Source of the DNA: an uncultured bacterium
GTDB lineage: Bacteria; Patescibacteriota; Minisyncoccia; Phycocordibacterales; GWA1-40-21
Assembly (NCBI GenBank): GCA_903850545.1
Contig: CAINLW010000037.1
Coordinates: 14,813-38,812, forward strand
Length of the DNA: 24,000 nucleotides
Direction: 5' to 3'
The position numbers and the translations under genes are program-made. The notes beneath the pieces were generated by a model that made no database searches, was not told the DNA's origin, and saw only the letters and a list, made by a program, of their open reading frames with translations. Positions 5,740-12,266 of this stretch are shown here, piece by piece. How positions within the stretch are numbered: the first letter of the stretch is position 1; each line of letters starts with the position of its first letter.

Positions 5740-5814
5740 GATTATATTGTAGCACGTGACAGTGTTATATACTAACCAAAATATATAAAAATTTAGATGA
5801 AAAACAAATTTTTG

Positions 5815-5885
5815 TGTCGATGAATGGAATCGGACCATTGTCTGAGGCTTATGAGTCCCCCGTTCTACCATTGAACTACACCGAC
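5815..5885 (-). tRNA. tRNA with CAU anticodon (elongator Met or Ile2), 71 nt
   Basis: GTCGGTG TA GTTC AATGGTA GAAC G GGGGA CTCATAA GCCTC AGAC AATGG TCCGATT CCATT CATCGAC A. The acceptor has one G-U pair. Positions 31-39 are an A/G mismatch. The T loop TCCGATT is non-canonical. Confidence 0.7.
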
Positions 5886-6067: not shown

Positions 6068-6141
6068 TGGTTGCGGGGGCCCGAATTGCACGGACGTCTC
6101 TAGGTTATGAGCCTAGCGAATTACTGCTACTCTACCCCGCT
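6068..6141 (-). tRNA. Initiator-type tRNA-fMet (CAU), CCA encoded
   Basis: AGCGGGG TA GAGT AGCAGTA ATTC G CTAGG CTCATAA CCTAG AGAC GTCCG TGCAATT CGGGC CCCCGCA A CCA. The acceptor GCGGGG/CCCCGCAACCA with a mismatched 1:72 pair mirrors E. coli tRNA-fMet. G30-C40 and G31-C39 are present. The D loop lacks GG and the T loop is TGCAATT. Confidence 0.75.
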
Positions 6142-8738: not shown

Positions 8739-8800
8739 AAAATAAATATAACATTTTAGAGAATAAAAGAAAACGGCATTAAAATTTTTTTATAAAATTT

Positions 8801-8833
8801 AGAAAACAAAAAGGGTCGCGTTTCCGTGACCCT
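8801..8833 (-). terminator. Intrinsic terminator closing the hammerhead operon
   Basis: The minus strand reads AGGGTCACGGAAACGCGACCCT followed by TTTTTGTTTTCT. It is preceded by a second hairpin CCTGT-tataaggaag-ACAGG (8836-8854), just past the stop of the 8868..9371 gene. Confidence 0.75.
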
Positions 8834-8867
8834 ACCTGTCTTCCTTATAACAGGATTTTGTTTAAAC

Positions 8868-9371
8868 TTACATCGCGATTGGTTTCGCGGTGTAGCTGGG
8901 AGCAAGACCAGCCGACCCCACTTCGCTCAGACCCGCCTCGGTGATTTCATATGCACCCTGACACTTATTAAGCTGGTCTAGATCCGAAAAAACAACTCTT
9001 AACTTCTTGATGTCTTCCCTGAAATGAGCCTGGTCGGGACGCTGTCTGACTGGTTTGCCCGGAGAACAACAACCTCTACTTTCGCGACCAATCATCTTGC
9101 CGGCTCGCATCTCGATAAGATCGAGGTGTTTCACCAAGCCGTCTTTTGCCATTTTGGGAAGTGCTGCCCGGACTCTCTGTTCCAGTTCAGACGCAATCCT
9201 CTGAGGTGTAATTCTCCCTTTATCAAACCCGTACCTTTCACACTCCCTCAGCATGAGGCCTTTGATCATCTTAATCGCCTCTTTCGACTGAGCTATTATG
9301 TTAGCAACTACCGGAACCAAAACCGGCCTTCCGGGATACTCAGCCAACGCCTTCAATATTAATTTTCTCAT
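8868..9371 (-). CDS. Hypothetical protein (167 aa), last cassette of the hammerhead operon
   Basis: The start is reassigned to ATG at 9371 (MRKLILKALAEYPG...), 8 nt after GAGAGGGAG. The longer ORF-track version (to 9470) reads through the hammerhead and leader. G+C is much higher than in flanking genes. A possible winged-helix-like segment (LPKMAKDGLVKHL) is only a guess. Confidence 0.7.
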   Translation of the reverse strand: MRKLILKALAEYPGRPVLVPVVANIIAQSKEAIKMIKGLMLRECERYGFDKGRITPQRIASELEQRVRAALPKMAKDGLVKHLDLIEMRAGKMIGRESRGCCSPGKPVRQRPDQAHFREDIKKLRVVFSDLDQLNKCQGAYEITEAGLSEVGSAGLAPSYTAKPIAM

Positions 9372-9446
9372 ATGTTTTCTCCCTCTCAACCTGTTCTTGC
9401 AAATCAGGAATATTTTACGAGAAGCAAATAAATCAAAGAACATTTT
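9372..9446 (-). promoter_or_regulatory. Conserved post-ribozyme leader module, copy A
   Basis: Minus strand: AAAAATGTTCTTTGATTTATTTGCTTCTCGTAAAATATTCCTGATTTGCAAGAACAGGTTGAGAGGGAGAAAACAT. It shares ATGTTCTTTGA, CGTAAA and TCCTGAYTYGMAAGARCAGGT with copies B-E. GTTCTT can pair with AAGAAC. Confidence 0.6.
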
Positions 9447-9496
9447 TCTGTTTCGTCCTTTTGGACTCATCAGTCGAAACTACACTTCGAGACAGA
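9447..9496 (-). ncRNA. Hammerhead ribozyme, type III (HH-A)
   Basis: Minus strand: TCTGTC|TCGAA-GTGTAGT-TTCGA CTGATGA GTCC-AAAA-GGAC GAA ACAGA. All core nucleotides are present (CUGAUGA, GAA, A15.1, GUC site). Predicted cleavage is between 9491 and 9490. A 5-bp hairpin GGGAA/TTCCC (9497-9517) abuts it upstream. Confidence 0.85.
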
Positions 9497-9530
9497 GGGA
9501 ATTTTATGAGATTTCCCAAACTCTTTACTA

Positions 9531-9908
9531 TCACTTTACCCACGGACACTTAACCAGCGAAGTCTTCGACGTTGACCAATAAGGCTTCGGTGCCTCCATC
9601 AATCCTAGCTTTACAAAACGCCGGTGAAGATCATCCATCAAAGACATTAGGTGTCCCCTGACAACTGTTCCATTCGTCTTGTACTCTCGCGCTATATTCA
9701 CTATTGTCATAGGGGTGGGATTGTCCCCAAAAGACTTGTAGGCTAAGTGAAATTTCAACAACTTTGCATACAACCCGTAGCCAAACTTGGTGCTTCCAGG
9801 AAGTCTTTTACCTTTTTTCTCTAAGGCACAATACTCCATATATATTACAAGCACAGCTTCCTTAACATCGGCGGAATTTACCACTTCGAACATGTTAATG
9901 TTGCTCAT
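9531..9908 (-). CDS. Hypothetical protein (125 aa), possible HTH
   Basis: The ATG at 9908 is preceded by AAGGGAAG. The segment MTIVNIAREYKTNGTVVRGHL looks helix-turn-helix-like (a guess). It lies between HH-B and HH-A. Confidence 0.65.
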   Translation of the reverse strand: MSNINMFEVVNSADVKEAVLVIYMEYCALEKKGKRLPGSTKFGYGLYAKLLKFHLAYKSFGDNPTPMTIVNIAREYKTNGTVVRGHLMSLMDDLHRRFVKLGLMEAPKPYWSTSKTSLVKCPWVK

Positions 9909-9979
9909 ATAATATCTTCCCTTTTTCTCACCTGCTCTTTCAAGTCAGGAATTATGAGAATTAAAATCAAAGAACATTT
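9909..9979 (-). promoter_or_regulatory. Conserved post-ribozyme leader module, copy B
   Basis: Minus strand: AAAAATGTTCTTTGATTTTAATTCTCATAATTCCTGACTTGAAAGAGCAGGTGAGAAAAAGGGAAGATATTAT. Confidence 0.6.
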
Positions 9980-10031
9980 TTCTGTTTCGTCCTTTTGGAC
10001 TCGTCAGTCGGAAACATATTCCGAGACAGAA
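9980..10031 (-). ncRNA. Hammerhead ribozyme, type III (HH-B)
   Basis: Minus strand: TTCTGTC|TCGGA-ATATGTT-TCCGA CTGACGA GTCC-AAAA-GGAC GAA ACAGAA. Stem I shows a compensatory change relative to HH-A. Predicted cleavage is between 10025 and 10024. The upstream hairpin is AGAGAA/TTCTCT (10031-10051). Confidence 0.85.
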
Positions 10032-10187
10032 GAGAAATTTACGTATTCTCTGTTCGCTTATGCGACGGTGAGTTTCAAACTCACAATCTAGGATTAACCT
10101 TCATCCTTGATTAGTAAGGTGTGTTAAAATTCATCTTTATAACAAGTCTTAACACAAAAAACCCCATTTTCTTAACTAGACAAACTC

Positions 10188-10607
10188 CTAGGTGATTATT
10201 TTGACCTCTCCCCTTTTGTGATCAAAAATCCCCACGGTGCCATTTTTGAAATTGACACCAGTCAAATGCTCCAACACCGGCTGATGAGAAACAACAATTA
10301 TTGAGACGCTGCATCTTTCTATCTCTCTCATTGTCTCCCAATGGTCTGAATTATCACAATCAAGATGATCGCGTGTTTCAAGAGACACTTTGCACTTTTT
10401 GTCTGACTTGATTAACACCTTTTTAATAATATCAGCTGTTTCCACCGCCCTCTGAAGAGGAGAGGTTATAATAAGTACAGTCCCTTTTATTATTTTGGCG
10501 ATATGCTCACCAGCCATTGTCGCCTGTGCCTTTCCATTATCATTCAGACCATTACCACGATCTTCACCGTGGCGAACAAGAAATACCTGCTTCAATACTT
10601 TAAGCAT
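10188..10607 (-). CDS. Histidine phosphatase superfamily protein, SixA-like (139 aa)
   Basis: The start is reassigned to ATG at 10607 after AGAGGGA. It carries the VFLVRHGE (RHG catalytic motif), SPLQRAVETA and VVSHQP motifs in the order and spacing of SixA-type phosphohistidine phosphatases. Confidence 0.75.
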   Translation of the reverse strand: MLKVLKQVFLVRHGEDRGNGLNDNGKAQATMAGEHIAKIIKGTVLIITSPLQRAVETADIIKKVLIKSDKKCKVSLETRDHLDCDNSDHWETMREIERCSVSIIVVSHQPVLEHLTGVNFKNGTVGIFDHKRGEVKIIT

Positions 10608-10674
10608 AAAGTTTCCCTCTTTCTTCAACCTGTTCTTTCGAATCAGGATTTACAAAGACCAAAATTTTAAAGAA
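10608..10674 (-). promoter_or_regulatory. Conserved post-ribozyme leader module, copy C
   Basis: Minus strand: ATGTTCTTTAAAATTTTGGTCTTTGTAAATCCTGATTCGAAAGAACAGGTTGAAGAAAGAGGGAAACTTT. Confidence 0.6.
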
Positions 10675-10725
10675 CATCTCTGTTTCGCTCTTTTGAGCTC
10701 GTCAGTCGAAGCTACACTTCGAGAC
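10675..10725 (-). ncRNA. Hammerhead ribozyme, type III (HH-C)
   Basis: Minus strand: ACTGTC|TCGAA-GTGTAGC-TTCGA CTGACGA GCTC-AAAA-GAGC GAA ACAGAG. Stem II covaries (GCTC/GAGC versus GTCC/GGAC). Predicted cleavage is between 10720 and 10719. The upstream hairpin is GGGAAT/ATTCCC (10726-10747). Confidence 0.85.
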
Positions 10726-10789
10726 AGTGGGAATTTTTATAGAGATTCCCGGAACTCTTTAGGATTTTTTGTTTTTACGCGGTAATCCA

Positions 10790-11093
10790 AACCGCATCAG
10801 ATACAGGTTCTATTAGGATAGGAGCAGTTTTGTTCGCTCACCTATACGCTTTAGTTTCCTTTACCTGCAAAATATAGTGTGATGGTCAGCTATGCCAAGT
10901 TTCTGACCCTGGAGTTTAACCGACAACTGTTCCTTGCTCTGCAGAGCTAAGGATGGCGCATTCGGCACAAGACTTCTATAGAGTCCTATGCGCACCAGTC
11001 ATCGGCCTCCCTTCATCTAACTCCCTCCATCCGAGGCCAGTTTGATGTTTGCACTTTTTAAAGTGCTGGTGCTTTAGAGATCACACGTCCCTG
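10790..11093 (-). ncRNA. Candidate structured non-coding RNA cassette between HH-D and HH-C
   Basis: No ORF of 60 aa or more exists on either strand across 10786-11048, and the minus-strand frame that I translated by hand carries 8 stops in about 105 codons. G+C is comparable to the neighbouring coding cassettes. There are many local hairpins: GGTGC..GCACC, GCACTT-taaa-AAGTGC, GGCCTC..GAGGCC, GCGCAT..ATGCGC enclosing AGGACT/AGTCTT, CCTTaGCTC-tgca-GAGCaAGG, GGTCAG..CTGACC and GCGGT..ACCGC. Confidence 0.35.
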
Positions 11094-11096
11094 CAC

Positions 11097-11171
11097 CATT
11101 TTCTTCAACCTGCTCTCTCAAGTCAGGATTTTTTACGAAGAAAATTATTAGAATTTATTCAAAGATCATTT
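11097..11171 (-). promoter_or_regulatory. Conserved post-ribozyme leader module, copy D (no strong SD, followed only by a 13-codon ORF)
   Basis: Minus strand: AAAATGATCTTTGAATAAATTCTAATAATTTTCTTCGTAAAAAATCCTGACTTGAGAGAGCAGGTTGAAGAAGAAA, followed by ATGGTGCAGGGACGTGTGATCTCTAAAGCACCAGCACTTTAA. Confidence 0.5.
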
Positions 11172-11234
11172 TCTAGTTTCGTCTTGCCACCTTGTGATGG
11201 AAGACTCATCAGTCCGACTCAGTCGGAGACTAAA
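11172..11234 (-). ncRNA. Hammerhead ribozyme, type III, extended stem II (HH-D)
   Basis: Minus strand: TTTAGTC|TCCGA-CTGAG-TCGGA CTGATGA GTCTT-CCATCACAAGGTGGC-AAGAC GAA ACTAGA. Stems I, II and III all differ in sequence from HH-A/B/C but keep their pairing. Predicted cleavage is between 11228 and 11227. The upstream hairpin is CGAGGAT/ATCCTCG (11235-11255). Confidence 0.8.
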
Positions 11235-11240
11235 CGAGGA

Positions 11241-11303
11241 TTAATTAGATCCTCGGGCGCTGTAGGGTTGTCCCCGACAGCGTACTTGGTTGTACATTGT
11301 CAT
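11241..11303 (-). CDS. Micro-ORF, 20 aa: MTMYNQVRCRGQPYSARGSN
   Basis: The ATG at 11303 lies 7 nt after GGAG. It is a paralog of the 18-aa ORF upstream. Of 8 substitutions across the first 13 codons, 5 are synonymous third-position changes. Confidence 0.6.
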   Translation of the reverse strand: MTMYNQVRCRGQPYSARGSN

Positions 11304-11362
11304 ACTATCTCCATTCTCTACCTGTTCTTTCGAATCAGGGTTTACGAGAGTTCAAAGAACGT
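11304..11362 (-). promoter_or_regulatory. Leader module, copy E (the only copy without a hammerhead in front)
   Basis: Minus strand: GACGTTCTTTGAACTCTCGTAAACCCTGATTCGAAAGAACAGGTAGAGAATGGAGATAGT. Its GTTCTTTGA box supplies the stop codon of the upstream micro-ORF. Confidence 0.55.
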
Positions 11363-11408
11363 CGTCGCCAGGTTGCCCCCGGCAACGCACTTCGTCGTAC
11401 ATTGCCAT
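11352..11408 (-). CDS. Micro-ORF, 18 aa: MAMYDEVRCRGQPGDDVL
   Basis: The ATG at 11408 lies 4 nt after AAAGGAGG, the best SD in the window. It is the first reading frame of the island operon and is paralogous to 11241..11303. Confidence 0.6.
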   Translation of the reverse strand: MAMYDEVRCRGQPGDDVL

Positions 11409-11510
11409 AAGGCCTCCTTTTCTATCTGATAACAGAATATCATTAATTGCAATAATGTGTTGTAAAATATGACTATTTGTAAAAGATAATTAAGAAAACG
11501 CAAAATAGGC

Positions 11511-11540
11511 TTGACAAATATAGTATAAAAAGTGTAAAAT
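11511..11540 (+). promoter_or_regulatory. Sigma-70-type promoter for the TrmB-like regulator gene
   Basis: TTGACA (11511-11516), an 18-nt spacer, then TAAAAT (11535-11540). It is 12 nt upstream of the ATG at 11553. Confidence 0.55.
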
Positions 11541-11552
11541 AAATTTACACTT

Positions 11553-12266
11553 ATGGAATATTCAAATGCATTACAACGTTTAGGACTATCGCTTAAAGAG
11601 TCCCAAATATACGAGACCTTATTAGATAAAGGTTCTTTAAGCATGATAAAACTATCCCAGATAACTGGAATTAACAGACCTGCACTTTATATTTTAATTC
11701 CGAAAATGATAAATAAAGGGTTAGTTATTGAGACAAAAAAAGGTAAGAGGATTGAGTATATTGCTTCCTCCCCTAATAAACTTGAGCCCTTAGTCAAAAA
11801 CGCCCAACAAAGTCTTGAAAATATAGTCACCAATTTAAATACTGAATTTTCTAAAAAACAGCTTGTTCCAAAAATTGAAACTTACTATGGTAAAGATGGA
11901 ATAATTAAGGTGCTTATGGATATTGTCACAACTCTAAATAAAGGGGATACATATTATCGTTACAGTATTAAAAAAATATCTGACAAATTTCCTTTGCCAA
12001 AAGAATATTATAGATTAAGAGATGAAAAACAAATTGAACGTTTAGTTATAGCTAGCTCCGAAGTAGCAAAAAGAAAAAAACCAGACTTAAATGAAACAAT
12101 TAAAATATTAAAAGGTAGCTATGATGGTTTTAATGCGACAAAAAACATTTATGGAAATAAAATTGCCTTTACAGATTATGAAAATGAGGTAGCTTTTATA
12201 ATCTACAACGAAAAAATGGCTAAACTAGAAAAAGAAATCTTTCTGAATTTGTACAAAACACTCTAA
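11553..12266 (+). CDS. TrmB-family-like transcriptional regulator (N-terminal winged HTH)
   Basis: LQRLGLSLKESQIYETLLDKGSLSMIKLSQITGINRPALYILIPKMINKGLV matches the TrmB-type HTH pattern. It is the only credible plus-strand gene in the window. Confidence 0.7.
   Translation: MEYSNALQRLGLSLKESQIYETLLDKGSLSMIKLSQITGINRPALYILIPKMINKGLVIETKKGKRIEYIASSPNKLEPLVKNAQQSLENIVTNLNTEFSKKQLVPKIETYYGKDGIIKVLMDIVTTLNKGDTYYRYSIKKISDKFPLPKEYYRLRDEKQIERLVIASSEVAKRKKPDLNETIKILKGSYDGFNATKNIYGNKIAFTDYENEVAFIIYNEKMAKLEKEIFLNLYKTL

Follow-up and report, generated by a model that had tools for sequence, protein, structure and literature searches.

Organization of the locus

The window (the whole stretch of DNA analysed, 24,000 nucleotides in length) contains a gene island with a GC content of 40-46%, compared with ~28-37% in the flanks, and all the island genes lie on the minus strand. 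The island cistrons encode a His_Phos_1 protein and two further proteins, ORF B and ORF C, in which no known domain is recognised. Very few homologs of these two were found, and their AlphaFold models (pLDDT ~52) are unusable. PADLOC gave no hits in the island. Rfam searches showed four type III hammerheads (HH1-HH4, Table 1), all with intact cores, E-values of 3e-8 to 3e-5 and scores below the gathering score of 48.5 (38-48 bits for HH2-HH4). HH1, whose alignment spans positions 1-54 of the RF00008 model, falls below the gathering score because of its long stem II. It carries the type III core CUGANGA ... GAAA, the triplet GUC (NUH) and three stems, with stem III open, and is predicted to cleave after C11228, 13 nt beyond the stop codon of the second of two short frames (uORF1 and uORF2). 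The initial annotation had placed these frames at the head of a ribozyme operon, and the four hammerheads downstream bear this out.

A TrmB-like regulator gene (11553-12266, plus strand) is transcribed divergently from the operon. Between the two lies an intergenic region (within 11439-12266) with repeated TTTTACA boxes that is conserved in eight TrmB-adjacent loci. The promoter-like site of the operon sits in this region, the boxes of which are common to the divergent TrmB-like gene. From the sequence, we infer that transcription of the operon would start near 11432. Related loci were reached through homologs of the window TrmB, which are named Minisyncoccia and Nomurabacteria. One of them (L167, from a relative with a 78% identical TrmB) is informative for the leader, one (L168, TrmB 76% identical) has a different leader, and five (L172-L176) have no hammerhead in the stretch examined, which for L174 covers just 126 nt upstream. 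Beyond TrmB, the window, L167 and L168 have a hammerhead operon as cargo, whereas L172, L173, L175 and L176 have small proteins and no hammerheads, with a weak Cas_csx3 Pfam match recorded for L175 and L176. The TrmB-adjacent site looks like a variable cargo locus with one conserved regulator and promoter. The hammerhead-free leader of L176 (L176:3853-3900, minus strand) contains GUUCUUUGA shortly upstream of the SD (Shine-Dalgarno sequence), and this motif is therefore not tied to ribozymes.

A cassette precedes every island cistron (8800-11235, minus strand) and consists of a hammerhead, (A)UGUUCUUUGA, a GNRA hairpin of the form CCUG-A-YUY-GNRA-RAR-CAGG, a purine-rich SD and an ATG. uORF2 occupies the slot of the gene in the hammerhead cassette. 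The module hairpin is paired in every alignment cell of its six copies, with covariation at one pair (U-A/C-G). uORF1 ends in the GUUCUUUGA motif, which makes up its last two codons and its stop codon, and the copies of the motif after HH2-HH4 are read in a different frame than in uORF1 (ATG TTC TTT GA). GUUCUUU is able to pair with AAAGAAC, the 3' half of the cassette hairpin. The operon ends with a sixth, variant hairpin and a terminator-like stem (8856-8800).

Between the HH1 cassette and HH2 lies a GC-rich stretch of ~370 nt (10731-11100, minus strand) without a convincing ORF. It begins with a 13-codon frame (11099-11058), has a fold z of -3.8, matches no Rfam model and does not align with the sequence between the L168 hammerheads. 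A non-coding RNA cargo released by the ribozymes is one possible reading of it. AAAGAGUU and a hairpin GGGAAU..AUUCCC precede HH2 (10733-10770), HH4 (9500-9535) and one L168 hammerhead (L168:20-70), all on the minus strand. AAAGAG is complementary to the UUCUUU after each hammerhead, and such pairing could bring together the ends of a ribozyme-released segment or the flanks of one ribozyme. Two tRNA-Met (CAT) genes (5814-5885 and 6068-6141, minus strand) lie ~180 nt apart, downstream of gatC/gatA-like genes.

Table 1. Positions of the leader and hammerhead features in the window, with the helices of the leader as predicted.
Feature	Position	Strand	Description	Basis
Promoter-like site	11439..11466	-	TTTACA, 16 nt, AATGAT	Consensus scan; intergenic region conserved in 8 loci
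Hairpin h0	11420..11437	-	5'-proximal, UCUGUUAUCAGA core; UCUGUURUCAGA kept in L167 and L168	Leader fold
SD of uORF1	11413..11420	-	AAAGGAGG	Direct sequence reading
uORF1	11352..11408	-	18 codons + stop, MAMYDEVRCRGQPGDDVL; in repeat copy W1	Translation; model R1 match, 78 bits
Hairpin alpha, W1	11381..11406	-	GGCAAUGUAC / GUGCGUUGCC, loop GACGAA	Folds without the beta 3' strand
Hairpin beta, W1	11363..11387	-	10 bp, loop GGCAA, then ACGUUCUUUG	-18.9 kcal/mol, z -4.1
Leader motif	11352..11360	-	GUUCUUUGA, recurrent, non-coding	Follows each hammerhead; also in L167 and L176
Hairpin h1	11321..11339	-	CCUG-A-UUC-GAAA-GAA-CAGG, GNRA loop, bulged A	Five island copies and one in L167
SD of uORF2	11308..11312	-	GGAGA	Direct sequence reading
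uORF2	11241..11303	-	20 codons + stop, MTMYNQVRCRGQPYSARGSN	ORF list, translation; model R1 match, 84 bits
Hairpin alpha, W2	11276..11301	-	9/10 pairs	Folds, pair counts
Hairpin beta, W2	11258..11282	-	6 bp, C.U mismatch, 3 bp, loop GACAA	-15.5 kcal/mol, z -3.5
Hairpin epsilon	11235..11255	-	CGAGGAU / AUCCUCG; holds the uORF2 stop codon, abuts hammerhead stem III	
HH1	11171..11235	-	Hammerhead type III, core CUGAUGAG...CGAAAC	Rfam RF00008, 37.9 bits, E 2e-6
HH2	10730-10677	-	Hammerhead type III	RF00008
HH3	10032-9979	-	Hammerhead type III	RF00008
HH4	9498-9445	-	Hammerhead type III	RF00008

The two short frames and their repeat

Translation confirmed that uORF1 and uORF2, each with an SD and an ATG, are positioned exactly as initially annotated. 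The two frames are separated by 105 nt, share the same reading frame and lie in the two copies of a 50-nt direct repeat (11371-11420 and 11266-11315) that the repeat finder aligned with 76% identity. The first copy, with uORF1, is referred to as W1, the second, with uORF2, as W2, and the copy of the relative as L167. The spacings between the SD and the start codon are AAAGGAGG-4-AUG in W1, GGAGA-4-AUG in W2 and GGAG-7-AUG in L167. The peptides are hydrophilic, charged and polar, and share the core MxMY[DN][EQ]VRCRGQP. A peptide-degenerate DNA pattern of this core has only two matches in the window, which are uORF1 and uORF2 themselves, with 0 expected from 100 shuffles. The initial count of the differences between the frames proved exact: eight in 13 codons, at codon positions 1, 1, 1, 3, 3, 3, 3 and 3, of which five are synonymous third-position changes and three are conservative first-position changes (A/T, D/N and E/Q).

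Comparison of W1 and W2 gives a dN/dS of 0.08 (Fisher p 0.004, random placement p 0.06) at a large divergence (raw pS 0.63). From the excess of synonymous changes, purifying selection on the peptide had been proposed, the pattern being considered hard to explain by RNA structure. The positions of the differences in the predicted leader structure and the comparison with L167 bear on this proposal and are described below.

Predicted structure of the leader

The leader of 213 nt folds compactly (z -4.7) and ends directly at the first ribozyme; the unit occurs twice in the window and once in L167. Hairpins alpha, beta and epsilon are structure predictions from a sample of three copies. Hairpin beta is the minimum free energy (MFE) hairpin in all three copies, in identical alignment columns (for L167, -12.3 kcal/mol and z -2.7), with the consensus CGYUGYC-GGG / loop / CCY-RCRRCG. 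Its 3' strand lies inside the peptide tails. Thus, the C-terminal tails, initially described as unrelated, are so only at the peptide level; as RNA, both give the 3' strand of beta. Hairpin alpha pairs the G of the start codon and codons 2-4 with codons 7-10 (GRCAAUGUAC / GURCGYUGYC). In W1, alpha begins at the start-codon G and forms part of the MFE structure of the complete leader; in L167 a 2x2 internal loop interrupts the long alpha helix. Since alpha and beta use one and the same strand (CGYUGYC), the two hairpins are mutually exclusive, and their energies are comparable. The inner three to four pairs of the W2 alpha (alpha') are compatible with beta.

In the three-copy alignment, 96.6% of the beta cells are paired, compared with 31-59% in slid controls. 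Of the ten beta pairs, three carry substitutions in both strands and two in a single strand, with pairing kept. For alpha, 90% of the cells are paired and there are two double changes. In the column-shuffle control, 39 of 500 shuffles for beta and 103 of 500 for alpha attain the observed value; the covariation statistics are weak because there are just three copies from two genomes. RNAalifold of W2 and L167 yielded alpha', beta and epsilon with 22 pairs, three of them compensatory and none broken, and epsilon and alpha' contain one double compensatory change apiece. In a non-circular pairing test, the structure was derived from W2 only and the real substitutions were scored on it. Between W2 and L167, eight of the 16 substitutions are in paired columns and break one pair (P = 0.007, random placement), and there are at least three double compensations (P = 0.006). 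Similarly, seven of the 12 substitutions between W1 and W2 are in paired columns and break no pair (P = 0.02). The helices of the leader are conserved through compensatory substitutions in these three copies.

The eight coding differences between uORF1 and uORF2 were placed on the predicted structure. GTG/GTA is located in alpha (U-G vs. U-A). CGT/CGC is located in beta (U-A vs. C-G) and is compensated by an A/G difference in the tail. TGC/TGT belongs to both beta and alpha (C-G vs. U-A) and is compensated by a G/A difference in the tail and, within alpha, by the G/A of the Ala/Thr difference. CCT/CCC is located in beta (G-U vs. G-C). The remaining ones, GGG/GGA in the beta loop and D/N and E/Q in the alpha loop, have no effect on pairing. 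Predicted pairs hold four of the five synonymous differences with pairing kept, two of them compensated from the tails, and the fifth is in a loop. The pattern can be fully explained at the RNA level, which contradicts the main argument made for selection on the peptide. More generally, a synonymous excess between paralogous micro-ORFs can come from RNA helices that have their partner strands beyond the apparent core.

The strand common to alpha and beta, the comparable energies and the extent of the ORF, which covers both hairpins as the ORF of the pyrBI leader spans both of its hairpins, would suit a leader-peptide attenuator, with W1 beta and the following UUCUUU as the terminator and alpha as the anti-terminator, set by the ribosome on uORF1. 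W1 beta was also flagged as terminator-like in a scan, with 10 bp, seven of them G-C, followed by ACGUUCUUUG. However, the U-tract is short and interrupted, and the UUCUUU comes from the motif that recurs after the hammerheads with no terminator hairpin before it. After beta, W2 has CCCGAGG and L167 has UCCGAGA, neither with U residues. Thus, termination cannot be the conserved role, and any attenuation would be secondary and confined to the duplicated copy. Regulatory codon runs are also absent from the three peptides, and we consider an attenuator unlikely.

The leader in the related loci

L167 contains one copy of the element, which runs into a hammerhead, and its promoter region, 5' hairpin and SD are as in the window. 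The single-copy form is probably ancestral. The L167 frame (MTNHNQVHCRGRPTVSENLANSR, 23 codons) is open, with SD and ATG. Compared with the W2 core, four of the 13 residues are replaced (M3N, Y4H, R8H and Q12R, MTNHNQVHCRGRP), so that both residues of 'MY' are gone; the three copies agree at M1, V7, C9, R10, G11 and P13. Past codon 13, a 1-nt deletion shifts the frame, while the tail nucleotides remain alignable with 73% identity. In this tail, the frame shifts where the nucleotides are conserved, an outcome that the initial annotation had itself named as speaking against a selected peptide. The pairing of beta is kept by a new double change from G-C to A-U, in which the Arg-to-His codon change (CGC to CAT) is compensated downstream. 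Similarly, alpha' is kept via U-A to C-G and epsilon via G-C to A-U.

Identity to L167 is 79% in both the leader core and the hammerhead and 73% in the frameshifted tail. With the TrmB gene as a yardstick, the identity of the window and L167 is 62% at third and 91% at second codon positions. Three of the 13 second codon positions differ between the W2 and L167 cores, giving 77% identity against the 91% in TrmB. By these identities, the constraint on the leader is real and shows no codon periodicity. Its level also bears on whether the repeats are a functionless by-product of modular recombination or duplication, alike through common ancestry alone. Such a by-product would fit an island made of repeated modules and the rarity of the element, of which no more copies were found in viral contigs, JGI metagenome contigs or the 58 kb of loci scanned. 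However, the L167 identities of 73-79% exceed the near-neutral yardstick of 62%, and pairing is still preserved at the large divergence between W1 and W2, making a by-product very improbable.

The comparison with L167 also bears on the reading as paralogous functional micro-peptides (a toxin, a signal or the precursor of a modified peptide), with the MY-x-x-VRCRGQP core under purifying selection. The SD, ATG and open frame in three of three copies, the low dN/dS between W1 and W2 and the six invariant residues are in its favour. However, dN/dS is 0.37 for W2 vs. L167 (p 0.2) and 0.65 for W1 vs. L167 (p 0.4), neither being significant. Thus, the proposed purifying selection is seen between the paralogs but does not extend to L167, with its four replaced residues, its low second-position identity and its frameshifted tail, and the synonymous changes that had suggested it preserve base pairs. 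The conservation of residues with change at synonymous sites that marks a small-protein family is lacking in the comparison with L167, and neither frame nor stop is maintained, the frames having 18, 20 and 23 codons in W1, W2 and L167 with different stop positions; an SD at proper spacing and a start codon are present in all three copies.

The toxin and modified-peptide readings are unsupported. A type I toxin is a hydrophobic membrane peptide paired with an overlapping antisense RNA, whereas these peptides are charged, polar and not membrane-like. The precursor of a modified peptide (RiPP) has an adjacent modifying enzyme or transporter, whereas the island consists of the His_Phos_1 protein and the two domainless proteins. 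Pfam and NCBIfam gave no match for the uORF1 and uORF2 peptides. We regard functional micro-peptides as improbable, and a function of its own for the uORF peptide sequence as quite improbable, while some constraint on the peptide in the window genome may be present.

In L168, the same 5' hairpin (UCUGUUAUCAGA) and SD are followed by an unrelated 23-codon first ORF (MILYIVNGQVFTSRKAALEAMRD, L168:603-345, minus strand), with hammerheads further on. Its leader (z -3.3) provides ~155 nt of structured RNA before the first hammerhead cleavage site. An unrelated ORF at that place, behind the same hairpin and SD, is a further point against functional micro-peptides and favours a role for the translation of a short ORF over a role for the peptide. 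A short first ORF behind a strong SD seems, on comparison of these loci, to be an architectural feature whose sequence is free. The short ORF is probably translated, because SD and AUG are kept in all three copies, and we hold translation of the uORF frames to be probable. The initial proposal that small peptides are encoded is retained to this extent, a translated leader ORF being plausible given the SD, ATG and open frame of L167, and is not retained for the peptide sequence, which is not conserved.

The same SD bears on another reading, in which HH1 releases the leader as a trans-acting small RNA or as an RNA operator for an island protein and the frame is incidental. The compact fold of the leader, the hairpins kept through compensation and the precise release by HH1 that would follow are consistent with such an RNA. 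However, a strong SD with correct AUG spacing, found in the three copies and in L168, is needless for an untranslated RNA. Neither a target nor a binding protein can be named; ORF B and ORF C lack recognisable domains. We find this reading doubtful.

The hammerhead of L167 lies next to the element (L167:148-90, minus strand). In it, U.U replaces the G-C that closes stem II (CUGACGAU...UGAAAC), and Rfam at E <= 0.1 did not report it. By sequence, this hammerhead may be weakened or inactive.

Searches for further copies of the element used exact patterns, blastn and a covariance model, and covered viral contigs, JGI metagenome contigs, GTDB representatives other than the window's own genome, phages and plasmids. 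The peptide-degenerate DNA pattern had no matches in viral contigs and one in JGI metagenome contigs, which was rejected as a chance match in a large repeat-protein gene of a high-GC contig. An RNA-level pattern of the element had no matches in viral contigs. A hammerhead-plus-leader pattern had 105 matches in viral contigs, none adjoining a hammerhead core, and a pattern of the module hairpin had three viral and 47 single GTDB-genome matches, none beside a hammerhead. Blastn of the leader against phages and plasmids gave nothing, and covariance model R1 showed no further copies in the 58 kb of loci scanned. Nine other contigs with the island are 99.9-100% identical and therefore offer no variation.

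Proposed working of the leader

Taken together, the repeats are best read as two copies of a structured RNA leader that acts in cis and stands at the head of a hammerhead-punctuated operon, rather than as a micro-protein family, a reading to which we assign a probability of roughly 0.6. As judged from the substitutions, selection keeps the base pairing, while there is drift in the amino acids, in the frame beyond codon 13 and in the position of the stop codon. The leader is a new and narrow RNA element with a known distribution of three copies in two related genomes.

For this cis-acting leader, the following working is proposed. The 5' end of the transcript would form a small hairpin, followed by the strong SD and AUG. 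The next ~75 nt would fold into three hairpins, alpha' (or the longer alternative alpha), beta and epsilon, leading into stem III of HH1. Competition for the CGYUGYC strand between alpha, which includes the G of AUG and codons 2-4, and beta would gate the access of the ribosome. A translating ribosome would melt beta and epsilon. At the end of the ORF, the ribosome would halt 2 nt (L167) or 13 nt (window) from the scissile bond and occlude stem III. Because a terminating ribosome would block stem III in this way, translation and HH1 folding would be linked. Cleavage by HH1 would free a leader RNA bearing a 5'-triphosphate and a 2',3'-cyclic phosphate, ~205 nt long in the window and ~100 nt long in L167, and the downstream cistrons would be RNAs with a 5'-OH.

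That the leader acts as a ribosome-gated switch for ribozyme self-cleavage is a speculative proposal with a low probability. The distances of 2 and 13 nt between ORF end and scissile bond fall inside, or at the margin of, the footprint of a terminating ribosome, and the hairpins formed by the coding sequence would position stem III. If the proposal is true, whether and when HH1 cuts, and hence the processing of the multi-ribozyme operon, would depend on translation of the leader ORF, and bacteria would have a natural case of small-ribozyme activity coupled to translation.

Comparison with known systems

No Rfam model matches the leader element at E <= 10. The element is small and hairpin-based, like twister, twister-sister, pistol, hatchet, HDV-like, mini-ykkC and preQ1 RNAs, some of which occur in tandem or near hammerheads. 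Twister, pistol, hatchet and preQ1 were rejected on the Rfam result, mini-ykkC since the conserved loops of the element do not fit ACGR, and an HDV-like fold since the strand order does not fit on inspection. A template or variable repeat of a diversity-generating retroelement (DGR) was rejected as well, the differences being not adenine-specific and no reverse transcriptase being present.

Like attenuators (trpL, pyrL and the ermCL/cat leaders), the leader has a short ORF with its own SD and a coding sequence with mutually exclusive hairpins, and its peptide sequence is poorly conserved compared with its RNA, which holds for many attenuators. Unlike in attenuators, the codons form no regulatory runs, a U stretch resembling a terminator is found after just one of the three copies, none of the hairpins is seen to sequester a downstream SD, and the leader is followed by a self-cleaving ribozyme and not by a structural gene. 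RNAIII/hld and SgrS/SgrT are similar in being structured RNAs of ~100-200 nt with a translatable frame of ~20 codons. However, the 3' end of the present RNA would be made by a ribozyme rather than a terminator, and the RNA has no known target or base-pairing function.

Bacterial hammerheads occur in clusters flanking single genes in prophage-like regions (Perreault et al. 2011, PMC3088659), and the role of genomically encoded bacterial hammerheads is largely unknown (review PMC6765202). We found no description in these two papers (PMC3088659, PMC6765202) of a structured, uORF-bearing leader ahead of the first ribozyme. In general terms the element belongs with structured leaders that contain an upstream ORF, and its ribozyme cluster is of a known type, but the leader motif and its combination with such a cluster appear to be undescribed in the literature examined. 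The present locus differs from those clusters in its low-GC, Patescibacteria-like host, in showing no integrase or phage genes, and in that each ribozyme is part of a fixed module with (A)UGUUCUUUGA and a GNRA hairpin, which makes it a compact, highly modular example of hammerheads in an ultrasmall-genome lineage. In common with the clusters, it has several type III hammerheads in one transcription unit, located between cistrons in a compositionally foreign block, and it shares their proposed role, in which a polycistronic RNA is cut down to the length of single genes. Should the leader control or report this ribozyme processing, it would provide a handle on the purpose of such operons.
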